Positions 2,461 through 57,191 of a stretch of DNA of 64,000 bases are shown here, in pieces (the first letter of the stretch is position 1; every line of letters starts with the position of its first letter). The notes beneath the pieces are model-generated. The model was given only the letters and a program-made list of their open reading frames with translations, made no database searches and was not told the DNA's origin. The stretch lies in assembly GCA_903823865.1 (NCBI GenBank), contig CAIJUJ010000021.1:6732-70731 (forward strand). Reading direction: 5' to 3'. This stretch comes from an uncultured bacterium. Lineage in GTDB: Bacteria; Patescibacteriota; Minisyncoccia; Phycocordibacterales; GWA1-40-21. A program made the position numbers and the translations under genes.

Positions 2461-2603
2461 TGTGCGAGTGGCGAGAATTGGCTATTACTTAGCCAGGTGC
2501 TTTTCCGCCTCACTTCGCTCGTATATAAAAGCCTTTCGATTCTCGCCCACAAGCAAAGCAGTTTGCTTGTTCACTCGAATTTAAAAACTAATCGTTTTTA
2601 AAT
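2461..2603 (-). mobile_element. tRNA-3'-linked miniature element, family I (Gly copy)
   Basis: 'tgtgcgagtggcgagaat' at 2461-2478 duplicates the tRNA 3' end at 2604-2621; hairpin CAAGCAAA-GCAG-TTTGCTTG at 2550-2569; 'ttcgattctcgccca' is an inverted T-arm copy; body homologous to the Met copy at 57243. Confidence 0.5.
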
Positions 2604-2605
2604 TG

Positions 2606-2676
2606 TGCGAGTGGCGAGAATCGAACTCGCGCCCGATGCTTGGGAAGCACCAGTTCTACCACTAAACTACACTCGC
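2606..2676 (-). tRNA. tRNA-Gly (CCC)
   Basis: Manual fold: acceptor GCGAGTG/CACTCGC, anticodon loop UUCCCAA, T GCGAG-TTCGATT-CTCGC. Confidence 0.85.
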
Positions 2677-2814
2677 CCGGTAGTAGAATTTGGCATCAAA
2701 AAGTTTTTCAACCAAATTTTTCTACAATTATCTATTCAACTATCAAACTACCTTATAACAACATAAACATCAATATATAACTTTTTAAAAACAATGCCAA
2801 ATTTCACTACGGGG
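2677..2814. mobile_element. MITE-like element with ~20-bp terminal inverted repeats, immediately upstream of tRNA-Gly
   Basis: CCGGTAGTAGAATTTGGCAT (2677-2696) and ATGCCAAATTTCACTACGGGG (2794-2814) are inverted repeats; AT-rich ~100-bp interior; second copy at 6933-7072. Confidence 0.45.
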
Positions 2815-2823
2815 CTCACATGA

Positions 2824-3201
2824 TTATTTAAAAATACTCCAAAAACTTGCCCAAAATCCTTTGTTCCCACTACTATTCTGGCTGGAAGTACTACTGCTGC
2901 CATTTATAACAACAACGACAGTTTCCCCCGGTTTTGCCACATTGAACTTACTTCGTATTTCTTCCTCCACTCCGTTGTCAGTTTTTAATCTGCCTATTTC
3001 TGAATTTAGCATATCCTTTCGTGCATTCAAACTGTCATACTGCTTTTTTATGGTTGCATAATTTTCTGCATTTAACTTGTATTTTTGATAAATATTGTAA
3101 GTTGCTTTTGCTAAAAAAATAATGATAATAAACAAAATTACCAATGTAAATTTTGAATACAGAAACTTATTTAGTTTTTTCTTTTGTTGAAAATCTATCA
3201 T
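2824..3201 (-). CDS. FtsB/DivIC-like septum-formation initiator (TM + coiled coil)
   Basis: N-terminal TM helix, coiled-coil heptads, Ser-rich tail; size typical of the family. Confidence 0.45.
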   Translation of the reverse strand: MIDFQQKKKLNKFLYSKFTLVILFIIIIFLAKATYNIYQKYKLNAENYATIKKQYDSLNARKDMLNSEIGRLKTDNGVEEEIRSKFNVAKPGETVVVVINGSSSTSSQNSSGNKGFWASFWSIFK

Positions 3202-3477
3202 TTTGGTGTATAGTTAGTATATAACATTTTAAAAGAATAATTAACCAATAAAACTTGTCCAGTTAAAAATTCAATGGATGTGAATAAAAAGAGAAATATT
3301 ACTAAATAGTAAAATGTAAATGAGTCGAAATAGTTTAATAATTTAAAATTTTGTACTGGGATGCTTTTCCACAAAAAAACTAGAAAATTTATGAAATATG
3401 CTTGGATTGTAATTGGAGCTTTACTAATTCTAAGTATGATTGTGCTTTATTCTCCTTTCTTGAGGTAGTTTAAATTC

Positions 3478-3507
3478 AAAAGGCGGGCCGTAAACGGCCC
3501 GCCTTTT
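3478..3507. terminator. rho-independent terminator downstream of lepA
   Basis: aaaaggcgggccg-taaa-cggcccgcctttt. Confidence 0.8.
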
Positions 3508-3511
3508 GAAT

Positions 3512-5323
3512 TTATTCACTCTTCATCATCTTCAAAAATACATCCTGTGTTATATTTACTTTTCCTCTTTCTTTCATTCTCTTTTTTCCTTTCTTTTGCT
3601 TTTCTCTCAATTTCATTTTTCTCGTAATATCACCTCCGTACAAATAGTCCGTAACATCTTTTTTCATTCCAGAAACAGATCTTGATGCAAGAATTCTTCC
3701 CGTGGCTTTTGCCTGGATTTTAAAATTAAACATTGTTCTTTCAATTGCTCCATGAAGTTTTTCAACTGTTTGGTCAGCTTCCTCTTGCATTCTTCTTCTG
3801 GCAACTATTTTACAAAATGCTGGAACTGGTTCATCCGCAACTAAAACCTCCATTTTTACTACATCGGCTTCCTTCATAGGCATTGCTTCATAAGAAATTG
3901 ATGCGTAACCAGAAGTCATACTTTTTAATTCGTTGAAAAAATTTCTCATAAGTTCTCGAAGTGGCATTTCAAGCGTAAGTGATGTTCTATTATCTCCAAA
4001 ACTTTCAGAATCTCCTATTACAGCCTCGTGCTCATAAAGTTGCTGCATTATCGCACCTATATACTGTCCTGGAGTTATAATTCTTACCCTTACCCATGGC
4101 TCCATAACTTTGGCTATCATATGGTCCTCGGGAAATAATGATGGCGAAAAAATCATTTCTTTCTTTCCATTATTAAAAGTTACTTCATAATTTACGCTCG
4201 GTGTTGTGACAATGAGTTGTAAAGTAAATTCTCTTTTTAATCTCTCAACAATAATTTCCAAATGAAGCATTCCTAAAAATCCACATCGGAATCCTCTTCC
4301 TAATGTTCCGGAAGTTTCTTCGTCAAAAGTAAAAGACGAATCTGAAAGTCTAAGCTTTCCTAGTGCAAGTTTTAACATTGCAAAGTCATCAGCACCTTCT
4401 GGATAAATAGAAGCCCAAACAACTGGTGATGGTCTGAAATATCCATGTAGTGGTGGTTGATTATCATTCACATGAGAAATAGTATCTCCAACAGAAGCAA
4501 TGTCTGATTCTTTAATTCCGGTAGTAATATATCCTATCTCACCTGCAGATAAAGTTTCTGTTGCTAGCTCAGATGGGGAAAAAATACCGACTTCTGTTGC
4601 AGTAAATGATTTTCCAGAAACCTTAAACGTAAGTGGAGTATTTCTTTTTGCTTGTCCATTAAAAACGCGCACAAAAACTGTGACACCACTATGATTTGAA
4701 TATTTAAAATCAAAAACTAAAGCTCTAAAAGATTTTTCATTTATTTCTAATTTATAATTTTCTTCACCAAATTCCCCACGTGGTCCAGGAATTTTTTTTA
4801 TAACTTCATTCAAAAGTTCGGAAACCCCTTCACCTGTTTTTCCGGAAACTTCTAAAATCGTGCTTACATCAATATTTAAAAGTTTTGCAATTTCTTCTTT
4901 GACTTCAGCTGTTCGTGCAAGTGGTGAATCAGTTTTGCTAACAACAGGAATTATCACGAGATTTGATTCTCGTGCCATGTTTAAAGTGGTTAAAGTTTGC
5001 GCTTGAACTCCCTGAGTTGCATCCACTAAAAGTATAGATCCCTCAACGGCTTTTAGTGCCCTAGAAACCTCGTAGGAGAAATCAATATGCCCAGGCGTAT
5101 CAATGAGGTTCATCACATATTCCTCGTTATTTAGGTGCCATTTCATGCGAACTGGCTGCATTTTAATGGTTATTCCACGCTCTCTTTCAAGCTCCATACT
5201 ATCAAGAACCTGGTCCATCATTTTGCGTTTTTCTATGGTGTTTGTAATCTCAAGCATACGATCTGCTAGGGTCGATTTTCCGTGGTCTATATGCGCTATA
5301 ATACTAAAATTGCGTATATTCAT
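3512..5323 (-). CDS. lepA: elongation factor 4 (LepA)
   Basis: 603 aa; G-domain 'AHIDHGKST', 'DTPGHIDF'; LepA-specific C-terminal domain. Confidence 0.95.
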   Translation of the reverse strand: MNIRNFSIIAHIDHGKSTLADRMLEITNTIEKRKMMDQVLDSMELERERGITIKMQPVRMKWHLNNEEYVMNLIDTPGHIDFSYEVSRALKAVEGSILLVDATQGVQAQTLTTLNMARESNLVIIPVVSKTDSPLARTAEVKEEIAKLLNIDVSTILEVSGKTGEGVSELLNEVIKKIPGPRGEFGEENYKLEINEKSFRALVFDFKYSNHSGVTVFVRVFNGQAKRNTPLTFKVSGKSFTATEVGIFSPSELATETLSAGEIGYITTGIKESDIASVGDTISHVNDNQPPLHGYFRPSPVVWASIYPEGADDFAMLKLALGKLRLSDSSFTFDEETSGTLGRGFRCGFLGMLHLEIIVERLKREFTLQLIVTTPSVNYEVTFNNGKKEMIFSPSLFPEDHMIAKVMEPWVRVRIITPGQYIGAIMQQLYEHEAVIGDSESFGDNRTSLTLEMPLRELMRNFFNELKSMTSGYASISYEAMPMKEADVVKMEVLVADEPVPAFCKIVARRRMQEEADQTVEKLHGAIERTMFNFKIQAKATGRILASRSVSGMKKDVTDYLYGGDITRKMKLREKQKKGKKRMKERGKVNITQDVFLKMMKSE

Positions 5324-5485
5324 AACTATGGTTTAATTTGAAAAACAGACTCAAAAATTGAGATGCTTGTCCCGTAGCTAACTTTTTCCTTCAAAAAAGT
5401 TATGGTACTGGGATGGGCAATAATACTGAAGTTTCGAATATTCATGTTTGTCCATATTAGCAGAAAAATAGTGAAAAATGAAATG

Positions 5486-5516
5486 AAAAAAGCCCCAGCG
5501 CGTGGACGCTGGGGCT
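5486..5516 (-). terminator. rho-independent terminator for ORF 5530-6042
   Basis: agccccagcg-cgtgga-cgctggggct hairpin followed by a T-run on the minus strand. Confidence 0.65.
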
Positions 5517-5529
5517 CGAGTTTGAATCT

Positions 5530-6042
5530 TCACTGTTGGAATATTGATACTGTGATATCATACAGAGCTTCAACAACTTGTTTATTGTATTTTAAGTTCG
5601 GATATTTTCCGAACTTATATTCCTTGAGTTTGGTGTCAAGGATACTATAATACTTCTTGGATATTCCATCTCTATTAAAATGGAATTCTCCTGTTCTTAA
5701 ACAATAAAGCAGGGAGTTGATAAAATATCTTCCCTGTTCTATGCTTCTTGTTACATAATCGAGTTTGTCTTTATGGTTGTGAACTTTAACAATTACTAAA
5801 TCTGAATCGTAATTTTTTGTTAAATCTGTCCCATCTCTTGAACCGATTGAGACAGCCCACTCTACGTCATTTACTTTAAAAAAAGCTACTTTGCTATATA
5901 TCATGAAACCTATACTTCCATGATATACCGTGACGACTTCTTGAACCGCCGTCACATTTACTTCTTGGAAATTATATCTCTTTTTTAATGATTGATACAG
6001 TTTTTCCAGTACCTCTCTTGCTGTAATTCCTGACTGCTCCAT
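5530..6042 (-). CDS. hypothetical protein
   Basis: 170-aa ORF with its own terminator and an upstream palindrome; no family recognised. Confidence 0.5.
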   Translation of the reverse strand: MEQSGITAREVLEKLYQSLKKRYNFQEVNVTAVQEVVTVYHGSIGFMIYSKVAFFKVNDVEWAVSIGSRDGTDLTKNYDSDLVIVKVHNHKDKLDYVTRSIEQGRYFINSLLYCLRTGEFHFNRDGISKKYYSILDTKLKEYKFGKYPNLKYNKQVVEALYDITVSIFQQ

Positions 6043-6136
6043 TTAATCCCCCTATTTTTATGCCTTGGATTTGATTTGTCCTTTTGGGACTTCCAAAGCG
6101 AGAACACCTAATCATTTTATAGCATGAAATAAGTTT

Positions 6137-6178
6137 ATTGCAAAGTCTTAATTTTTTTCAAAAGGTTAAGACTTTGCA
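6137..6178. promoter_or_regulatory. perfect 14-bp inverted repeat (TTGCAAAGTCTTAA-N14-TTAAGACTTTGCAA), candidate operator upstream of ORF 5530-6042
   Basis: Exact palindrome arms read directly from the sequence. Confidence 0.4.
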
Positions 6179-6179
6179 A

Positions 6180-6215
6180 CAAAAAACCAGCCGTTGAAAT
6201 TATCTCAGGCTGGCT
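6180..6215 (-). terminator. rho-independent terminator for ORF 6223-6762
   Basis: On the minus strand: agccagcc-...-ggctgg followed by tttttt. Confidence 0.6.
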
Positions 6216-6222
6216 TAATACT

Positions 6223-6762
6223 TTAAACCTTTTTTATATTGGAAAGAGCACTCTTGCTTTTGGAAATGTCTTCAGATATTTCATTTGTTCTTTTTGCGGC
6301 CGCTTCTAGAGTCTTAGACAACATGTCTAAGAAAAAGAAAAAACGAGGGTCGGCTGGATTCTCAGCGAATTCTTTAATATAAGCTTTCGTGAATTCTTCG
6401 CCGAGCTCACGGTACAAAATGTCTATAGCTTTTCCACAGCATTCTTCAATTACTTGCAGGCCTAGAACTCTGTTCACTATGTATGATTGGTCTCTTCTTT
6501 CAGGGTGATTTGTTCCACAAAACTCACATGTGACAGGACCGTATGTTCCATGAGCATCGTTATTCCACCCAAATCCGCCTTCAGGTATTTCACTTTCCCC
6601 AAAAGGTTTAGAAACGATCGGTGCTTTTATATGCATATTGGACCTCCGTCCATCAGAATTTTGAGCTTTAACTTCTAATGAAAGTAAAGCATAGTTAATT
6701 TGGTAAATCAAGAAATTGACGGACATAAAATTCGGGTCCATCACATAAGTGCATCCTAGCAC
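6223..6762 (-). CDS. hypothetical protein (true start possibly Met at ~6636)
   Basis: ORF with 'CEFCGTNHPERRD' Cys/His cluster; the N-terminal 40 aa overlap the tRNA-Tyr terminator region. Confidence 0.45.
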   Translation of the reverse strand: MLGCTYVMDPNFMSVNFLIYQINYALLSLEVKAQNSDGRRSNMHIKAPIVSKPFGESEIPEGGFGWNNDAHGTYGPVTCEFCGTNHPERRDQSYIVNRVLGLQVIEECCGKAIDILYRELGEEFTKAYIKEFAENPADPRFFFFLDMLSKTLEAAAKRTNEISEDISKSKSALSNIKKV

Positions 6763-6773
6763 TTACTCTGGAC

Positions 6774-6812
6774 GCACAAAAATAAAAACGCCATAGAAGC
6801 GTTTTATTTTTG
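6774..6812 (-). terminator. terminator hairpin directly following tRNA-Tyr
   Basis: gcacaaaaataaaaacgc-catagaa-gcgttttatttttgtgc; the stem includes the tRNA 3' nucleotides. Confidence 0.6.
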
Positions 6813-6894
6813 TGCGCCGGGAGGGACTCGAACCCCCGAAGGCCGAAGCCGCAAGATTTACAGTCTCGTGTAATTGCCACTATACGACCGGCGC
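6813..6894 (-). tRNA. tRNA-Tyr (GTA), long variable arm
   Basis: Acceptor GCGCCGG/CCGGCGC, anticodon loop CUGUAAA, variable-arm hairpin GCGGC-UUCG-GCC, A73. Confidence 0.85.
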
Positions 6895-6903
6895 AGTAAA
6901 AAC

Positions 6904-6931
6904 ATAGTATCATTTATTTTTCAGAATTTCA
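6904..6931 (-). promoter_or_regulatory. candidate sigma70-type promoter for tRNA-Tyr (TTGAAA-16-TACTAT)
   Basis: -10 ends ~9 nt before tRNA +1; lies between the MITE-like TIR and the tRNA. Confidence 0.35.
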
Positions 6932-6932
6932 A

Positions 6933-7072
6933 ACCCAGTAGTGAATTTTGGCATTATTTTTTAAAAAATATTTTGTATTCTATTTCTACAATAAAACGTT
7001 TGCAAATATATTAAAAAACAGATTATTTTTGTGAATAAAAAATATTTTTGATGCCAAAATCTACTACAGGGC
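6933..7072. mobile_element. MITE-like element with ~21-bp terminal inverted repeats, upstream of tRNA-Tyr
   Basis: CCCAGTAGTGAATTTTGGCAT (6933-6953) and ATGCCAAAATCTACTACAGGGC (7051-7072); homologous to 2677-2814. Confidence 0.45.
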
Positions 7073-7077
7073 AAACA

Positions 7078-7116
7078 AAGAGGGGTTTCGCTTCGCGAAA
7101 CCCCTCTTTGTTTTTT
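7078..7116. terminator. rho-independent terminator downstream of clpB
   Basis: aaagaggggtttcg-cttc-gcgaaacccctcttt followed by tttttt. Confidence 0.75.
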
Positions 7117-7126
7117 GAATTGTATC

Positions 7127-9802
7127 TTAAACACTTTCAACTAATTGTCTTTCCAATATCATCCCCTTTCTCCCTTTCTTAACACTGAAAGACATCTCAT
7201 CATTTTTTATATCAACTATTACTGTTCCGCCTTTTAATATTCCTTCTGAAATAATAAGAGATGCGATGTGATTCAAAATTTTGTCCTGAATCAATCTTTT
7301 AAGTGGTCGTGCACCATATTGAGGATTGTATCCTTTTTCAGAAAGATATTCTAAAGCTTTGTCTGAAATTTGCATGACAATTTCTTTGGTTTGCAATCTT
7401 TCTTTGACTAAATTTATTTGTATATCAACAATTTTTTTAATAGCTTCTTTTGACAAAATATCAAAAATAATTACATCATCAAGACGGTTCATAAACTCTG
7501 GTCTGAAAAAATCTTTCAAGCTAGCAAGTATTTTTTCTTTGACTAAATTGTATTCATTTTTCTTTTCATCTTTTGCCGTAAAACCAATTTGCTCCATTTT
7601 ATCTATAAATTGAGCCCCAATATTTGATGTCATAATAATCAAAGTGTTTTTGAAATTGACCACTCTGCCTTTTGAATCAGTAAGTCTTCCATTATCAAGA
7701 ACCTGAAGTAATAAATTAAATACTTCTGGATGTGCTTTTTCTATTTCATCAAATAAAATAACTGAATATGGTCTGTGGCGAACAGTTTCTGTAAGTGCTC
7801 CACCTTCTTCATAGCCAACATATCCTGGAGGTGAACCAATAAGTTTTGAAGTAGAATGTTTTTCCATAAACTCTGACATATCTACTCTTATCAAAGCTCT
7901 TTCATCATCAAACATAAATTCTGCTAGTGCTTTTGTGAGTTCGGTCTTTCCTACTCCAGTTGGACCCAAGAAAATAAATGAACCGATCGGTCTGTTTGGG
8001 TCGGCAATTCCAGCACGAGATCTTTTTATCGTGTCAGCAATTTTTCTAACCGCTTCATTCTGACCAACAATTCTTTTTTCAAGCTCTTGTTCCATTCTAA
8101 CAAGCTTATGTGCTTCGCTTTCAAGCATTCGAGAAACTGGGACGCCTGTCCATTTTGAAACCACTGAGGCGACATCCTCTTCTGTAATTTCTTCTTTCAA
8201 AACTCTTCTTGAAGTTTGGAGTTTTTTCAATTTTTTAAGTTTTACATCCAATTCTTTTTCTGCTTCAGGGATTTTTCCATATCTAATCTCGGCAGCTTTT
8301 GAAAGATCTGCTTTTATTTCTGCATTTTCCGCTTCAATTCTCAAAACTTCTAATTGTTTTTTGAGAGATTTAATGCCACTCAAAATTTCTTTTTCAGTTG
8401 TCCATCTGAGCTCAAGATCAGAAGTTTTTTCTTTCAAATCAGCAATTTCTTTTTCAATTATCGCAACTCTTTTTTTAGTTTCTTTCTTTTTTTCTCCTTC
8501 AACTTCTTTTTTGAGTGCTTCTTTTTCAATTTCAAGTCGCATAACTTTTCTTCTTGTCTCTTCAAGAATAGGCGGCATATTTTCCAAAGATATTTTTAAC
8601 ATTGATGAGGCTTCATCAATGAGGTCCACTGCCTTGTCTGGCAAAAATCTATCGGTAATATATCTTGAACTTAAATTCACGGCAGACAAAATTGCATCAT
8701 CAGTAATTCTGACTCCGTGATAAAGTTCGTATTTTTCTTTGAGACCCCGAAGTATTGCAACAGCATCTTCTACTGATGGTTCGGCAATCATCACAGACTG
8801 AAAACGCCTTGTTAATGCGGGGTCTTTTTCGATTTTTTGATATTCCTTTATTGTTGTCGCACCAATGGTTCTAAGTTCGCCTCGCGATAATGCTGGCTTT
8901 AACATGTTTGAAGCGTCCATTGAACCCTCAGCAGAACCAGCACCAACAATAGTGTGTATTTCATCAATAAACAAAATTATTTTCCCTTCTGATTTTTCAA
9001 TTTCTTTTATTATTCCTTTTAATCTTTCTTCAAACTCTCCCCTGTATTTTGTTCCGGCAATAAGAAGTCCAAGATCAAGAGATACAAGCTCTTTGTCTTT
9101 CAAAGATTCTGGAACATCGTTTGTTGCAATTCTAATTGCGAGACCCTCAACGATTGCTGTTTTTCCTACACCAGCTTCACCAATAAGTATCGGATTATTT
9201 TTTGTTCTTCTAGAAAGTATTTGAATTATTCTTGAAATTTCATTGTCTCGCCCAATAACTGGGTCAAGTTTATTATCTTTTGCGAGCTTGGTAAGATTTC
9301 TAGTGTATTTTAAAATTGCTCGGTATTTTTTGGGCTGATCTATATCACTCCCCTTCAAAGTTTTTAATTCTGAAAGAATTTTTAATATGGTTGTTTTATC
9401 AATTTTAAATCTCATCAAAATATCTCGGGCAGAAGTTGGTGTATCAAGTAATGCCAAAAAAAGATGTTCAGTTGAAATAAATTCGTCTTTCAAATCTTGT
9501 GCTTCTTTTCCAGACAAATCCAAAACTTTTGCTAGATCCGGAGTTAAATAAATTTGATTTGCTGGAGAAAGGGTTGTTGAGCCAGTACTCGATTCGATTG
9601 CTTCAAGAATTGAATCAGTAAATAAAATTAAATCAATTTCTAATCTGTCCAAAATTGAAGAGACAACGCTTTCCTCTTGAAGTACAAGTGCTGCCAAAAG
9701 ATGTAAAGGATTTACATGATTTTGCCCACGTTCAATAGCAAGCTCATGAGCTCTTCTGATTACTTCTTTCGCTTTAGTTGTGAAGTTGTTAAATGGTGGC
9801 AT
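7127..9802 (-). CDS. clpB: ATP-dependent chaperone ClpB (two AAA+ modules, coiled-coil M-domain)
   Basis: 891 aa; N-terminal Clp-N repeats; two Walker A sites 'GEAGVGKT' and 'GPTGVGKT'; long coiled-coil between the AAA domains. Confidence 0.95.
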   Translation of the reverse strand: MPPFNNFTTKAKEVIRRAHELAIERGQNHVNPLHLLAALVLQEESVVSSILDRLEIDLILFTDSILEAIESSTGSTTLSPANQIYLTPDLAKVLDLSGKEAQDLKDEFISTEHLFLALLDTPTSARDILMRFKIDKTTILKILSELKTLKGSDIDQPKKYRAILKYTRNLTKLAKDNKLDPVIGRDNEISRIIQILSRRTKNNPILIGEAGVGKTAIVEGLAIRIATNDVPESLKDKELVSLDLGLLIAGTKYRGEFEERLKGIIKEIEKSEGKIILFIDEIHTIVGAGSAEGSMDASNMLKPALSRGELRTIGATTIKEYQKIEKDPALTRRFQSVMIAEPSVEDAVAILRGLKEKYELYHGVRITDDAILSAVNLSSRYITDRFLPDKAVDLIDEASSMLKISLENMPPILEETRRKVMRLEIEKEALKKEVEGEKKKETKKRVAIIEKEIADLKEKTSDLELRWTTEKEILSGIKSLKKQLEVLRIEAENAEIKADLSKAAEIRYGKIPEAEKELDVKLKKLKKLQTSRRVLKEEITEEDVASVVSKWTGVPVSRMLESEAHKLVRMEQELEKRIVGQNEAVRKIADTIKRSRAGIADPNRPIGSFIFLGPTGVGKTELTKALAEFMFDDERALIRVDMSEFMEKHSTSKLIGSPPGYVGYEEGGALTETVRHRPYSVILFDEIEKAHPEVFNLLLQVLDNGRLTDSKGRVVNFKNTLIIMTSNIGAQFIDKMEQIGFTAKDEKKNEYNLVKEKILASLKDFFRPEFMNRLDDVIIFDILSKEAIKKIVDIQINLVKERLQTKEIVMQISDKALEYLSEKGYNPQYGARPLKRLIQDKILNHIASLIISEGILKGGTVIVDIKNDEMSFSVKKGRKGMILERQLVESV

Positions 9803-10027
9803 TTACCCGAAAAAATTTTTACTGATAAAAGTTGTTTTGACCTTTATTACTAATTTAATATACTCTTTCTAAAAAATAAGTGCAAATATTCATATTTTGA
9901 GCAAAATAAACAACTTTTTTGCATTATGTGCTTTTTAAAAAGAAGTAATTTTTATATACTTATAGCTAATTATAAATATTTTTTGACTCCAAACACTAGC
10001 TACGCACATAATGCGTCAGTAAAAACT
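9803..10027 (-). promoter_or_regulatory. structured 5' leader/promoter region of clpB, homologous to the RNase J leader (blocks at 10004-10027, 9911-9933, 9803-9836)
   Basis: Three conserved blocks shared with 28524-28728; block 3 ends at the ATG; blocks 1/3 and 1/2 are mutually complementary. Confidence 0.45.
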
Positions 10028-10042
10028 TTAACGGGTGAAGGT

Positions 10043-10906
10043 TTATTGAGCTTTTTTCTGTGAGTCAGCAAGCGCATTTAGTGCATTTTGGATATCTAGG
10101 CTTGGAGTAAACAAATCTGACTTTGAACTATCCATATATATAGTCTTGATTCCGACAAGTTCTCCAGAAAGATTTAATAACAAACCACCAGAAATAAAAT
10201 TGGCAGGAACTGATGTTTCTATTGAGGATATTTTAGTAGTAACTGGTGTAGATGTAGAATTATCAGTCGGCTGGATTTGTTTAACAGATAATGTTGAGAC
10301 AATTCCTGTTGAAACTGAATCTTTTGATTCTCCTCCAATATAAATTACTGATTGTCCTAGTTTCAAATCATTTTTTGAAATAGAAACTGTATTATATTTT
10401 ACAGGATTTTTTTCGTCATTTTTAATTTTTAATAATGCTACTTGTTCTCCTGATACAGATCTTAAAACAGAAAGATCTATTAATTTATTATCTGAATTGG
10501 TAATAAAATATTTTCCACCATCTGAAATAAGATTATTATCTGTAGCAATCATGCCGTCTGTACTTATAATAACCCCTAATCCAACAAATACCATAGAATT
10601 TGATCCAGATGATGGATCTGTATTTGTTCTATAAATTCTTATCAAACTATTTTTATTTTTTTCTACAGCTCCAACTATTTGATCGTCTGTGCTTACTACT
10701 ACGGTTTCTTTAACAACTGTTTGGGTTTCTTTTGTTGGACCTGTGACTGTTTCAATTGTTCTTTCTACAACTTTATTTATTGTTTGAACCACTCCAACTG
10801 GAGCTTGGTTCATAAGTGCAACAGTAACAATACCCGTCGCAATAGACGTAACAAAACTTACCAAAAGCGCAAGTAAAATTAATTGTTGTTTGGTTAAATT
10901 CTCCAT
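10043..10906 (-). CDS. membrane-anchored trypsin-like (DegP/HtrA S1C-like) protease-domain protein, possibly degenerate
   Basis: N-terminal TM helix; 'ISGGLLLNLSGELVGI' resembles the HtrA GNSGGPL Ser region; no clear catalytic His; no PDZ domain. Confidence 0.5.
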   Translation of the reverse strand: MENLTKQQLILLALLVSFVTSIATGIVTVALMNQAPVGVVQTINKVVERTIETVTGPTKETQTVVKETVVVSTDDQIVGAVEKNKNSLIRIYRTNTDPSSGSNSMVFVGLGVIISTDGMIATDNNLISDGGKYFITNSDNKLIDLSVLRSVSGEQVALLKIKNDEKNPVKYNTVSISKNDLKLGQSVIYIGGESKDSVSTGIVSTLSVKQIQPTDNSTSTPVTTKISSIETSVPANFISGGLLLNLSGELVGIKTIYMDSSKSDLFTPSLDIQNALNALADSQKKAQ

Positions 10907-16335: not shown

Positions 16336-16416
16336 GCACGGGTGGTGAAATGGCAGACACGCTAGCCTTAGGAGCTAGTGCCGTAAGGCATGGAGGTTCA
16401 AGTCCTCTCCCGTGCA
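16336..16416 (+). tRNA. tRNA-Leu (TAG)
   Basis: Acceptor GCACGGG/CCCGTGC, anticodon stem CTAGC/GCTAG with loop CUUAGGA, long variable arm, A73. Confidence 0.85.
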
Positions 16417-16690
16417 CAGTAAGAAAACGCCGATAGGGCGTTTTTCTGTGCGCAGGAGAGGACTTGAAAGACGGACTGAGCAAAGGCGAAGGAGCCGGGG
16501 TCGCGCAAATTTTCAGCAGAAAATTATGCGTGACCAAGTCCTCTTGTGAAATAGAAAAAATACGAAGACTATACTGACCATGTAATGACCAAGATTCCTC
16601 TCCCGTGTCGTGTATTTAATTTGGGGTGGGACCAAAATTAAATACTCGTGACCACATTCTATTTTATTTATGTTTTGACATTTAACCAAT
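16417..16690 (+). repeat. tRNA-3'-linked element, family II (Leu-TAG copy)
   Basis: Terminator 16423-16446; 'aggagaggacttgaa' inverted T-arm copy; 'gaaagacggactgagc'; hairpin aatttt-CAGCAG-aaaatt 16508-16525; direct T-arm/3'-end copies 'aagtcctct' and 'cctctcccgtg'. Confidence 0.5.
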
Positions 16691-26765: not shown

Positions 26766-28523
26766 GTGAAAGAAAAGATTAAAAAAATTCTCAATAAAAA
26801 ATGGGAGATTAGATTTTTTGAAAATCTCTCAGATATGACAAAAAAATTCAGTATATCTGAAAAATTGTTATTTTATACCCTAAGTACAATACTAGTAATC
26901 TCCGGACTAGTCATATTAAACAAGGTTAATGATTCTGTTTCCGTACAGGTTCCAACGAACGGTGGGTATTTAAAAGAAGGTATTATCGGCACACCTAGAT
27001 TTATAAACCCAGTTCTCGCCGTTTCTGATGTCGACCACGATTTGGCTGAGCTTGTATATTCTGGATTACTAAAATTTGGACAAGACAATTCTATAATAAA
27101 TGATTTGGCTAAAAGCTATGATGTTTCAAACGACGGTCTTGTTTATACTTTCACACTTCGTGATGATATTTACTTTCACGATGGAACAAAAGTTACAACA
27201 GACGATGTTGAGTTTACAATAAATAAAATTCAGGACAGCACAATTAAAAGCCCAAAGAGACCAGGATTTTATGACGTAAAAGTTGAAAAAGTTGATGATG
27301 AAACGATTAAATTTATTTTGAAAAAACCATACTCACCTTTCTTGAGCAATCTTACAGTTGGAATATTACCCAAACATTTGTGGGACAACTTAACATCAGA
27401 TCAGTTTCCTTTAAGCCAGTACAACGTTGAGCCAGTAGGTTCTGGACCATACAAAGTGACAAAAATGGAAACCTTACAAAAAAACAGTTTGCTTATTCCA
27501 ACATATTACGAATTAAATGCTTTTGACGGATATGTTTTTGGTAAACCATTTGTTGAGCAGCTTATTATAAATTTTTATAAAGATGAAACTAGTTTAATCG
27601 ACGCATACAATAGACGTGAAGTAGAATCAATAAATTCAATTTCACCAGAAAAAATAATCAGCCTAAATAAAGATAATGGATCAAAAATAAATGTTTCTCC
27701 CCTACCAAGAGTTTTTGCAGTATTTTTTAATCAAAATCAATCGGAAGCTTTAACATACAAAGAAGTCAGGCAGGCATTAAATATGGCAGTAGACAGAAAT
27801 GCAATTGTAAACAGTGTTTTATCTGGCTATGGTAGCCCACTTTATAGCCCTATACCAGCGGGGTTACTAGACGATTCAAATAACAATATAACCGACAACA
27901 ACATTGATGGAGCTATAAGTTTACTTACAAAAGCAGGCTGGGTAAAAAGTACGAGCACGGGTATCATGACTAAAAAAATTAGCAAAACAAAAACAGTTGA
28001 ACTTTCATTTACAATTTCTACATTAAATAGTGACGACCTAGTAAAAGCTGCCCAGCTAATAAAAAGTGCTTGGGAAAAAATCGGCGCAAAAGTTGATATC
28101 AATCAATTTGATTTTGGAGATTTACAACAAAATATTATTAGACCAAGAAAATTTGAAGCACTTCTCTATGGAGAAGTTATTGGTAGAGATATGGACTTCT
28201 TCGCATTTTGGCACTCATCTCAAAGAAATGATCCTGGTCTAAATATCGCAATGTATACAAATGCAAAAGTTGACAAACTTTTGGAAGATGCAAGAACAAC
28301 ACTTGATACATCAGCAAGAATTACAAAATATAAAACATTTGCTGATGAAATTCAAAAAGATACCCCAGCAGTATTTTTATACTCACCAGAATTTATTTAC
28401 ATAACACCAGCAAAAATCCAAGGATTTACGCTTGGTACTGTTACACTACCATTCGAAAGATTTCTTGATATCAATAATTGGTATATTGAAACAAACAATC
28501 TTTGGAAGATTTTCACCCGTTAA
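26766..28523 (+). CDS. ABC transporter substrate-binding protein, family 5 (OppA/DppA-like), solitary
   Basis: 585 aa; N-terminal anchor; family-5 SBP architecture; no permease genes adjacent. Confidence 0.7.
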   Translation: MKEKIKKILNKKWEIRFFENLSDMTKKFSISEKLLFYTLSTILVISGLVILNKVNDSVSVQVPTNGGYLKEGIIGTPRFINPVLAVSDVDHDLAELVYSGLLKFGQDNSIINDLAKSYDVSNDGLVYTFTLRDDIYFHDGTKVTTDDVEFTINKIQDSTIKSPKRPGFYDVKVEKVDDETIKFILKKPYSPFLSNLTVGILPKHLWDNLTSDQFPLSQYNVEPVGSGPYKVTKMETLQKNSLLIPTYYELNAFDGYVFGKPFVEQLIINFYKDETSLIDAYNRREVESINSISPEKIISLNKDNGSKINVSPLPRVFAVFFNQNQSEALTYKEVRQALNMAVDRNAIVNSVLSGYGSPLYSPIPAGLLDDSNNNITDNNIDGAISLLTKAGWVKSTSTGIMTKKISKTKTVELSFTISTLNSDDLVKAAQLIKSAWEKIGAKVDINQFDFGDLQQNIIRPRKFEALLYGEVIGRDMDFFAFWHSSQRNDPGLNIAMYTNAKVDKLLEDARTTLDTSARITKYKTFADEIQKDTPAVFLYSPEFIYITPAKIQGFTLGTVTLPFERFLDINNWYIETNNLWKIFTR

Positions 28524-28728
28524 AGTTTTTACTGATGCATTATGCAATTTCCATATTTACTAAAGTAATAAAAATTAATTATTCATTGTTTATAAAAAAT
28601 AAAATAAGAAAAATAACATTGCATAATGCAAAAAAGTTATTTAAAAATATTATCAATAATAAATTTAAATAAGTTATAGAATTTAGTCACTCATAACTTT
28701 TTATCAGTAAAAATTTTCTCGGGTAAAT
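28524..28728 (+). promoter_or_regulatory. structured 5' leader/promoter of RNase J, homologous to the clpB leader (blocks 28524-28547, 28617-28638, 28695-28728)
   Basis: Same three blocks as upstream of clpB; begins at the stop codon of the preceding gene. Confidence 0.45.
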
Positions 28729-56934: not shown

Positions 56935-57117
56935 GCTGGCCGGAGTTTCTCCCTCGACTAAAGCCTCGTCTTCACTCGGCTTTGTCTGGGCACCAGCTCA
57001 TTCACCTCGCAAGCTTGCGAGGTATCATTCCGCTGTTCGAATCCGGACGCAAGCAAAGCAGTTTGCTTGCTCCAGCCGCGCAAATAAAAATAACCACTTT
57101 CGTGGTATTTTTATTTG
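56902..57117 (-). mobile_element. tRNA-3'-linked miniature element, family I (Asp copy), with an extra partial tandem duplication of its distal end
   Basis: 'gctggccgga' at 56904-56913 and 56935-56944 duplicates the tRNA 3' end at 57122-57131; hairpin GCAAGCAAA-GCAG-TTTGCTTGC at 57049-57070; 'gttcgaatccggac' inverted T-arm copy; body 'tcattcaccYcgcaagcttgcgRggtatcattccgctgttc' shared with the Phe copy. Confidence 0.5.
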
Positions 57118-57191
57118 CGCGGCTGGCCGGATTCGAACCGGTGACCTCTCCCGTGACAGGGGAGCGCTCTAACCAACTGAGCTACAACCGC
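57118..57191 (-). tRNA. tRNA-Asp (GTC)
   Basis: Acceptor GCGGUUG/CAGCCGC, anticodon loop CUGUCAC, G73. Confidence 0.85.

Follow-up and report, generated by a model that had tools for sequence, protein, structure and literature searches.

The question raised by this locus was what kind of sequence occupies the two AT-rich segments of about 140 bp, each bounded by inverted repeats, that lie next to the tRNA-Gly and tRNA-Tyr genes in a 64-kb stretch of a contig from an uncultured bacterium of the Patescibacteria, or candidate phyla radiation (CPR) (contig CAIJUJ010000021.1, positions 6,732 to 70,731). The whole stretch of 64,000 nucleotides is hereafter called the window, and coordinates given without a locus label refer to it; loci obtained by our searches carry L numbers. 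An earlier note, made from the sequence alone, had described the two segments as elements resembling miniature inverted-repeat transposable elements (MITEs) in the promoter regions of the two tRNAs. With the help of genome, metagenome and viral contig searches we found that the segments, here termed copies A and B, are probably copies of a family of non-autonomous fold-back (hairpin-forming) transposable elements that is widespread in CPR/Patescibacteria.

The window is a segment of a bacterial chromosome (about 32% GC, 15 tRNA genes), and the inverted repeats that the earlier note had placed at 2677-2814 and 6933-7072 were present there. Copies A (2676-2814) and B (6934-7071) are each about 140 bp long with 21-bp inverted arms. 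The arms of copy A at 2675-2696 and 2794-2815 (22 nt, separation 97 nt) and those of copy B at 6934-6954 and 7051-7071 (21 nt, separation 96 nt) both showed 86% complementarity, and all arms have four variable complementary bases followed by GTAGT[AG/GA]AWTTTGGCAT. Matches to GTAGTRRAWTTTGGCAT without mismatches were confined in the window to the four arms of A and B, and none of 200 shuffled sequences folded as stably as the two copies (z -4.1 to -7.0). Alignment on both strands showed that A on the plus strand corresponds to B on the minus strand, i.e., the copies are oppositely oriented relative to their tRNAs, which are both encoded on the minus strand. The AT-rich interiors of A and B are unlike each other except for the arms and a few adjoining bases.

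A scan of 185,579 species genomes, in which both arms were required and four positions per arm were left free, yielded 16 further loci with the two-arm pattern and up to four copies per metagenome-assembled genome (MAG). All 16 loci were in CPR/Patescibacteria MAGs labelled as Kaiserbacteria, Taylorbacteria, Paceibacterota, “Saccharibacteria” or “uncultured bacterium”. For at least one MAG (contig L014) the label Saccharibacteria is open to doubt: its ClpB is 90% identical to that of the window, whose LepA homologues carry the names Paceibacterota or Pacebacteria. Metagenomes were searched with a single arm, after which the partner arm was sought; this gave at least 119 loci and, among the matches listed, about 100 true copies with a partner arm and 18 partnerless loci, 16 of which were chance matches in coding DNA and two decayed copies. 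Since the two-arm pattern recurs in these genome and metagenome loci, a chance origin of the inverted repeats in the window is excluded, and the arms are conserved in relatives. The family is not detectable in phage contigs: none of 49 single-arm matches in viral contigs had a credible partner, and their number equalled the chance expectation. Near seeded copies one extra copy was found per approximately 31 kb, in agreement with the two copies in the 64-kb window, which points to tens of copies per genome of about 1 Mb. A full-text literature search returned nothing on MITEs or REP-type (repetitive extragenic palindromic) repeats in CPR, Patescibacteria or Parcubacteria and nothing quoting the arm sequences. 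The family has apparently not been described before; in terms of known kinds it belongs to the small non-autonomous palindromic mobile elements.

With the GTAGTAGA end placed first, all copies share the order X, Y, GTAGTAGA, 9-nt inner arm, interior, inner arm', TTCACTAC, Y', X, in which X is a direct repeat of 3-5 nt that varies by locus and Y/Y' is the outer stem pair of 4 nt, GC-rich and variable in sequence with complementary sides. Among 114 distinct copies, the two flanks agreed for exactly 4 nt in 62, for 5 nt in 17 and for 3 nt in 13, compared to 7.6, 0.6, and 4.2, respectively, after permutation; one copy had a duplication of 7 nt (L111). Target-site duplications, which the earlier note had proposed to look for, were found at both window copies (CTCG/CTCA at A and CAAA/CAAA at B).

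Orthologous loci were obtained through LepA homologues (percentages give LepA identity to the window) and revealed present/absent polymorphism at identical sites in closely related genomes. Site A was filled in the window, L004 (91%), and L095 and empty in L188 (98%), L191 (96%), L189/L190 (94%), L066 (93%), L067 (91%), and L068 (89%), with a single GCGAG in L066, L067, L068, L188, L189, and L191. Site B was filled in the window, L191 (96%), and L014 and empty in L189 (94%) and L066 (93%), where one TTTG precedes AAA (…TTTTG TTTG AAAT… vs. …CTTTG TTTG [element] TTTG AAAT… in the filled state). Each empty site thus holds the duplicated bases in single copy. The possibility that the outer stem is copied from the target was rejected, as the empty sites contain neither stem half. 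Tandem copies with one common X were observed in L143, L079, and L175, which implies that a used target remains a target.

The targets were reconstructed from 58 distinct copies with exact duplications and gave the consensus T50 T48 G38 A45 | C48 (A/T), i.e., TTGAC(A/T) with the stagger over TTGA; TTAA was never used. Relative to the AG arm the duplication read TCAA in 17 copies and TTGA in 16, and because the two are equally frequent insertion is blind to orientation. TTGAC(A/T) is also the −35 hexamer of sigma-70 promoters. We scanned 202 flanks for strong promoter-like sites (−35 with at least 5/6 matches, −10 with at least 4/6 including A2 and T6, spacer 16-18) and found that the −35 box started at base 0 of the duplication in 27 flanks and at base +1 in five (32/202 in total), as opposed to scores of 0-2 at other offsets, the background being about 0.2 per position. 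One of the +1 cases is copy B ([element] T-TTGAAA-17-TACTAT, then tRNA-Tyr). The genes behind these promoters include EF-Tu, DnaK, IF-1, S14, L35, SecE/NusG, NusA, a sigma factor and tRNA-Tyr, among others, and a 16S rRNA gene lies 120 nt downstream of one copy. With respect to the promoter, neither orientation of the element was preferred; the elements are intergenic, typically between the end of a gene and the next promoter.

This setting also bears on the possibility that the hairpin is a host cis-regulatory module kept by selection, such as an operator or upstream activating sequence for a dimeric regulator, an insulator, or the 3'-end hairpin of the upstream transcript. The precise abutment on the −35 boxes of translation, chaperone, tRNA, and rRNA genes, the typical position from gene end to next promoter, the small number of decayed relics, and the combination of identical arms with strongly diverged interiors in orthologues (A vs. 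L004, B vs. L014, L008/L010/L141/L151) would all fit such a module. We consider it improbable nevertheless: orthologous promoters function without the element in relatives that are 93-98% identical, the module lies in either orientation, copy A is not at a promoter, and copy B follows a separate canonical terminator. Arm conservation is in part an effect of ascertainment, as most copies were found through intact arms, and a TTGAC preference together with purifying selection would explain the location without a function. In the mobile-element interpretation, an enzyme that prefers TTGAC would insert the element there; insertions at TTGAC within coding sequences would be eliminated, and at the outer edge of a −35 box an insertion would leave the promoter (−35 and −10) intact, so that the surviving copies would accumulate at the upstream edge of the −35 hexamers of strong housekeeping promoters. 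Such a location follows from the identity of TTGAC with the −35 consensus and from the presumed loss of insertions within genes; active recruitment to promoters, though conceivable, would not be required.

Sequences resembling a DnaA box (8/9-mer, TTATCCAC(A)) were observed within about 45 nt of an element, or as the insertion target itself, in L011, L012, L006, L016, L086, L111, L132, and L112. By a strict count (5 of 124 copies) the enrichment was about sevenfold (0.415 vs. 0.057 per kb elsewhere in the same loci), and the 7-nt duplication in L111 belongs to such a box.

An invariant 8-bp box reads GTAGTAGA on one arm and GTAGTGAA on the other, so that in the hairpin A·C stands next to G·T in 101/101 copies. 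AG on one arm and GA on the other was found in 18/18 copies with these positions left free in the genome scan. Among the matches listed, no metagenome copy had a perfectly complementary box partner, though the fuzzy search would have accepted one. The outer pair Y/Y' (e.g., CCCC/GGGG, CCCG/CGGG, CCCA/TGGG, CAGG/CCTG, CCGG/CCGG, CCAG/CTGG, and TCAG/CTGA) was perfectly complementary in 81/109 copies as compared to 25.5 in permuted pairings, with C at its positions 1 and 2 in 92/101 copies. The 9-bp inner arm usually reads WTTTGGCAT. By-catch copies from the same loci carried the inner arms AAATGACAT, ATTTCAGGT, TTTGTGGTT, TTTTAACGA, AAATAGCAT, and TTTTGCCAA, each with the matching complement opposite, and two-sided changes were present at at least 12 of the 21 stem positions. 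All 123 pairs of GTAGTAGA…TTCACTAC no more than 400 nt apart were spaced as in the elements, with two modes and a minimum of about 39 nt. A looser box search in which an inner-arm complementarity of at least 7/9 was required still recovered 124 pairs; essentially no box pair fails this requirement and the complementarity is therefore not a selection artefact.

Terminal inverted repeats of 21-22 bp were present in all copies, whose length ranges from 60 to 150 bp and is mostly 60-85 bp. The short form has an interior of 21-41 nt (79 copies) and the long form, to which A and B belong, one of 82-110 nt (mostly 88-98 nt; 30 copies, mainly in low-GC genomes). The interiors hold no conserved open reading frame (ORF) and consist of hairpins or AT-rich sequence. 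Short interiors form two small GC-rich hairpins side by side, which gives the whole element a T-shaped fold with a three-way junction; this two-hairpin fold was predicted for 51 of 76 distinct short interiors vs. 8% of shuffled sequences (median z -2.9). A nested element, with an inner hairpin inserted into an outer palindrome of 24 nt, was considered and rejected, since “empty” outer palindromes were not found and the boxes never come closer than about 39 nt.

Compensatory changes along a 21-bp stem, and two hairpins kept in shape rather than in sequence, would also be expected of a multi-copy gene for a structured non-coding RNA, namely a three-way-junction RNA with a conserved internal-loop motif. 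AAA and TTT loops are equally frequent, and neither strand shows an excess of G·T over A·C; this lack of strand asymmetry argues for a structure at the level of DNA rather than of one RNA strand. The short forms moreover have neither a promoter nor a terminator of their own, copies lie in both orientations relative to neighbouring transcription, and target duplications and empty sites accompany them. Searches against Rfam 15 returned only tRNAs at gathering scores in the window, and in eight short-form loci no family match even at E ≤ 1 except chance microRNA and SL1 matches far below threshold. Of the explanations considered here the RNA gene appears the most remote. Four further candidates, a sigma-54 promoter, an attC site, a tRNA-derived short interspersed element (SINE), and the CIRCE or HAIR operator, were discarded because the sequence lacks their defining motifs.

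To return to the transposable element, the search for a mobilising enzyme covered about 0.7 Mb of carrier DNA around known copies plus the window. When partner arms up to 6 kb away were considered, no pair enclosed a gene, and around the known copies arm pairs more than 150 nt apart occurred only between separate copies. One apparent autonomous candidate in L115, found among box pairs 300-6000 nt apart whose ends are complementary and with a CAAG duplication flanking 2.1 kb, resolved into two separate copies in duplicated promoter regions. These regions (L115 9980-10120 and 12040-12180) are paralogous, with the promoter TTGCAT-17-TATAAT, and their two element copies have the same flanks and different arm variants; either element and promoter were duplicated as a unit or the site was used twice.

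Clustering of 341 neighbouring ORFs from 101 loci identified a single recurrent mobile-DNA gene, which encodes a protein resembling Y1_Tnp transposases and REP-associated tyrosine transposases (RAYT) and was present at four loci. These IS200/RAYT-like genes of about 215 aa (L006 2596-3420, L166 688-1381, L174 83-730, and L111 23-670) lie 0.1-2.6 kb from an element in 4/102 loci and scored 27.3 bits with PF01797 (cut-off 23) and 29.7 bits with the NCBIfam model REP_Tyr_transpos (cut-off 80). In L006, L166, and L174 they have hairpins of their own on either side that differ from the element, TGTCAAAGGC/GCCTTTGACA and GTCAAGGTGGAGCCTTGAC. The perfect hairpins beside the Y1 genes were also observed to contain TTGAC/GTCAA (e.g., TAAAATGTCAAAGGC/GCCTTTGACATTTTA and GTCAAGGTGGAGCCTTGAC).

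The presence of these genes raises the possibility that the family is instead a hairpin of the REP type or of the REPIN type (paired inverted REP sequences), with a conserved GTAG motif, moved as single-stranded DNA by a domesticated HUH transposase of the Y1 type (RAYT/IS200-like) present once per genome. A hairpin conserved in structure and variable in sequence, a GTAG-containing box with a fixed mismatch, and AAA/TTT loops on either strand as in DNA hairpins agree with this possibility, as do the nearby Y1_Tnp genes. HUH Y1 transposition, however, proceeds without target duplication, and here even non-consensus targets (e.g., CTCG, TTTG, TATA, TTCG, and TCCA) are duplicated exactly on both sides; because the empty sites hold one copy, a pseudo-duplication carried by the element is excluded. 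The exact duplication of rare target sequences likewise led us to reject a guide mechanism like that of IS608, in which the duplication would be a pseudo-duplication. Furthermore, four Y1 genes in about 0.65 Mb are not clearly above the background of the gene family, and the Y1 genes are bracketed by hairpins other than the element. The Y1_Tnp/RAYT-like protein was rejected as the mobiliser because of its own hairpins and the target duplications, transposition of this type being improbable to the same degree as the cis-regulatory module; protein and hairpins appear to form a distinct system of the REP/RAYT kind within these CPR genomes.

The mobiliser of the hairpin family would most likely be a DDE-type transposase that acts in trans and makes target cuts staggered by about 4 nt; this enzyme is inferred, no transposase gene having been found in the carrier DNA and window. 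In the proposed mechanism the enzyme would recognise the conserved mismatch box in the folded element, either a cruciform or a single-strand hairpin, which would explain why pairing rather than sequence is kept elsewhere in the stem, and catalysis in trans would integrate the element by a staggered reaction at 5'-TTGA|C in either orientation with a duplication of 3-5 bp (mode 4). A folded active form is suggested by pairing conservation, the invariant mismatch box, the interior flip described below, and the 60-85-bp copies taken together, as DNA of 60-85 bp is too stiff for its two duplex ends to be bent together. Several arm variants moreover occur on one contig (three in L143, two in L152), and separate transposase specificities for them are unlikely in genomes of about 1 Mb.

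Several observations weigh against a transposable element of this kind. Besides the missing transposase gene, no longer element with the same arms was found in the carrier DNA and window. A MITE moved as double-stranded DNA by a DDE enzyme would not be expected to show compensatory changes between its ends, a mismatch box that never varies, or an inverted interior, and the model does not account for these features. The interior was inverted relative to the AG/GA box in nine inverted-similar pairs vs. 20 direct-similar ones, the interior isomers stand at 43:21 overall, and on contig L113 two interiors are 23/25 identical only after one is reverse-complemented, with the same arm polarity. The combination of a 4-nt duplication and the interior flip is not jointly explained by the model. 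The duplication length is variable (3-5 nt, in one case 7 nt), and the four bases past the duplication equal the copy's own outer stem in 10/109 copies, with three expected, which hints at homology-assisted or self-end-directed targeting. The pattern of filled sites at A and B is at odds with LepA divergence, and the Y pairs differ between orthologues (CCCG/GGGG in the window vs. CAGG/CCTG in L004 at site A; CCCT/TGGG vs. CAGG/CCTG in L014 at site B), so that one has to assume repeated gain at a hot spot, precise loss, or an exchange of alleles. The resemblance to the IS1380 and piggyBac families, finally, concerns end features only and is to be taken as a lead, not as membership.

Comparison with known systems places these points in context. 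The Correia/NEMIS elements of Neisseria are about 100-155 bp long with 26-bp terminal inverted repeats and a TA duplication, and they often lie beside genes and affect promoters. The hairpin elements resemble such bacterial MITEs in being small, non-coding, multi-copy, and intergenic near promoters, with terminal inverted repeats, a short duplication, and presence or absence between strains. They differ in duplicating 4 bp at TTGA|C rather than TA and in having no known cognate insertion sequence or transposase; they also conserve the 8-bp box only, the remainder of the terminal repeat covarying as a stem, their interior, composed of one or two hairpins, is found inverted with respect to the box in some copies, and many copies are only 60-85 bp long. 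The description as MITE-like holds for the small non-coding body, the terminal repeats, the duplications, and the dispersed copies; the transposase-encoding parent that the term implies was not found in the roughly 0.7 Mb searched around known copies, and the stem covariation, mismatch box, and flipping are atypical.

With REPIN elements, bacterial interspersed mosaic elements (BIMEs) composed of REP sequences, and their RAYTs, the family shares two inverted repeats that form a long imperfect hairpin, the GTAG motif, an extragenic location in tens per genome, and Y1_Tnp genes in the same genomes; unlike them it has real target duplications and Y1 genes flanked by other hairpins, and unlike a REP a single arm is not palindromic. 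IS1380 elements, distant prokaryotic relatives of the eukaryotic piggyBac, have a 4-5-bp duplication and CC ends. The likeness to piggyBac/IS1380 consists of a 4-bp T..A duplication (here TTGA/TCAA and other TNNA variants), 5'-CCC.../...GGG-3' ends, and seamless empty sites; the hairpin elements never use TTAA, their arm sequence is unrelated, such a transposase was not found, and hairpin covariation and flipping are not piggyBac/IS1380 traits. PiggyBac targets TTAA and has CCC/GGG ends, and IS1380 is related to it (PMC10140906).

Two further comparisons concern folded DNA. The inverted terminal repeat (ITR) of parvoviruses, e.g., adeno-associated virus (AAV), is an analogue only: it is a T-shaped DNA hairpin with a recognition-box stem, two GC-rich cross-arms with AAA/TTT loops, and two isomers, the flip and flop configurations of AAV differing by inversion of the cross-arms. 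The ITR is a chromosome end at which hairpin transfer involves the HUH nickase Rep, whereas the hairpin elements are internal, flanked by duplications, 60-150 nt long, and without a link to a Rep gene. The attC sites of integrons (57-141 nt) are similarly folded single-strand substrates with conserved mismatches and a variable, possibly branched terminal structure. The hairpin elements differ from them in lacking the core sites RYYYAAC/GTTRRRY, in having direct repeats as flanks (mostly TTGA/TCAA), and in forming isolated intergenic copies rather than cassette arrays, with no integrase nearby.

We tentatively raise the possibility that these elements form a new class of mobile DNA defined by its structure, in which a T-shaped hairpin with a long stem, the invariant mismatch box and two cross-arms would be recognised and moved in folded form by a CPR enzyme, aimed at −35 TTGAC sequences and isomerising between flip and flop in the manner of parvoviral terminal hairpins. 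Through its choice of target it would act as a portable module that rewrites what precedes the strongest promoters of reduced genomes (tRNA, rRNA, EF-Tu, DnaK). That the mechanism itself is new is likewise conceivable, the opposite being the better guess. The mechanistic puzzle lies in pairing-constrained ends, an invariant mismatch, and flipping, and the mobilising enzyme may be a compact, sequence-targeted DNA integrase. Mobile DNA has been little described in the tiny genomes of CPR/Patescibacteria, where the elements may serve as markers of promoters in organisms without experimental transcription data and give rise to differences between strains at the promoters of tRNA, rRNA, and ribosomal-protein genes.

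What, then, do the two copies mean for the tRNA genes beside them? The gene order at A is lepA, divIC, copy A, tRNA-Gly, grx and at B clpB, terminator, copy B, tRNA-Tyr, all neighbours being housekeeping genes. Copy A (2676..2814, plus strand, long form, with orthologous filled sites in L004 and L095) is composed on the plus strand of the outer stem CCCG (2676-2679), the AG-type arm GTAGTAGAATTTGGCAT (2680-2696), the AT-rich interior (2697-2793), the GA-type arm, written as ATGCCAAATTTCACTAC (2794-2810), and the outer stem GGGG (2811-2814). Its left duplication CTCG (2672..2675) corresponds to bases 5-2 of tRNA-Gly in the minus-strand reading and its right duplication CTCA (2815..2818) differs from CTCG by one substitution; the divIC stop codon follows at 2824-2826. 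ARAGORN placed the 5' end of tRNA-Gly(CCC) (2605..2676, minus strand) at 2676, i.e., at the outermost base of copy A, and that of tRNA-Tyr(GTA) (6812..6894, minus strand) at 6894, 39 nt from copy B, in agreement with the distances of 0 and about 40 nt given by the earlier note.

Copy A is inserted inside the tRNA-Gly gene, with bases 2-5 duplicated and the 3'-terminal G of the element serving as G1 (…G CGAG TGTAG… before and …G (T/C)GAG [element…G] CGAG TGTAG after insertion). It does not occupy a promoter region, as had been claimed for both copies, and the 5' end of the window's tRNA-Gly is a composite to which both element and gene contribute. Its insertion into the target CGAG is tolerated because the terminal G recreates G1. 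The earlier note had further reasoned that the element must supply the promoter of tRNA-Gly. It could do so: a promoter-like site directed towards the tRNA, TTGGCA-17-TATATT (2772..2800, minus strand), has its −35 TTGGCA in the arm and its −10 TATATT in the interior, and the L004 orthologue has an inward TTGGCA-16-TATAAT; this site is not general across the family. It need not do so, since in relatives without copy A the end of divIC is only 3-20 nt from tRNA-Gly, a gap which suggests co-transcription with divIC, an arrangement no less likely than a promoter carried by the element.

Copy B (6934..7071, minus strand, long form, opposite to A, with filled orthologues in L014 and L191) reads on the minus strand CCCT, AG-type arm GTAGTAGATTTTGGCAT, AT-rich interior of 96 nt, GA-type arm, TGGG. 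Its duplication CAAA (6930..6933; minus-strand reading TTTG) shares bases with the −35 box TTGAAA in the promoter of tRNA-Tyr, and the second CAAA (7072..7075) lies at the T-tract end of the clpB terminator hairpin (7073-7113). The promoter between copy B and tRNA-Tyr was confirmed as TTGAAA-17-TACTAT (6904..6932, minus strand) with a spacer of 17 by our promoter scan instead of the 16 given earlier; it abuts copy B, its −35 beginning at duplication base +1, and is kept in L014, L066, L189, and L191 whether the element is present or absent. If copy B were removed, the T-tract of the clpB terminator (7073-7113) and the −35 of tRNA-Tyr (6927-6933) would overlap (…CTCTTTGTTTGAAA…), and the clpB/tRNA-Tyr junction is also extremely compact in the empty-site relatives.

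The two copies explain the odd 140-bp spacers beside tRNA-Gly and tRNA-Tyr in the window. The proposal that tRNA loci are hotspots for such elements was not supported: a tRNA was adjacent in only 3/16 genome loci, two of them orthologues of A/B, and 13 of the 15 tRNAs in the window lack an element (present at 2/15). There is no family-wide association with tRNAs; the elements are associated instead with TTGAC, the −35 hexamer of the sigma-70-type promoters of many housekeeping genes.

Other repeats were noticed around these tRNAs. An 18-mer from the 3' end of tRNA-Gly, TGTGCGAGTGGCGAGAAT, is repeated about 145 nt downstream in the window (2461-2478 vs. 2606-2623), and in relatives without copy A a fragment resembling the 5' part of tRNA-Gly (GCGAGCGTAGTTTAGTGGTACCCC...) lies between divIC and the intact tRNA (L188 approximately 4520-4610, L189 approximately 8500-8715). 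These partial duplicates suggest another element or past integrations that used the same tRNA. L068 (LepA 89%) has, between tRNA-Gly and the glutaredoxin gene, a gene of 370 aa (9020-10132) with a weak IS110-type Transposase_20 domain and without the arms of the hairpin family. The genes of tRNA-Tyr, tRNA-Asp, and tRNA-Leu-TAG are followed by sequence complementary to their own 3' acceptor/T-arm end (6766-6823, 57072-57126, and 16397-16468, respectively), which forms hairpins of 21-26 bp that include the tRNA 3' end; these could be terminators that sequester the 3' end or the “family I” element of the earlier note.

A second inverted-repeat family is present in the window at 9802-10039 and 28512-28727. 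Its arms of 24-25 nt, TTYACCCG-NN-AAA-N-TTTTTACTGAT ... ATCAGTAAAAA-N-TTT-NN-CGGGTRAA, are separated by 166-190 nt and the two copies can be aligned over their whole length. One copy lies between a trypsin-like protease gene and the start of clpB and the other just upstream of the RNase J gene, and the family may represent another MITE-like element or a shared regulatory region.

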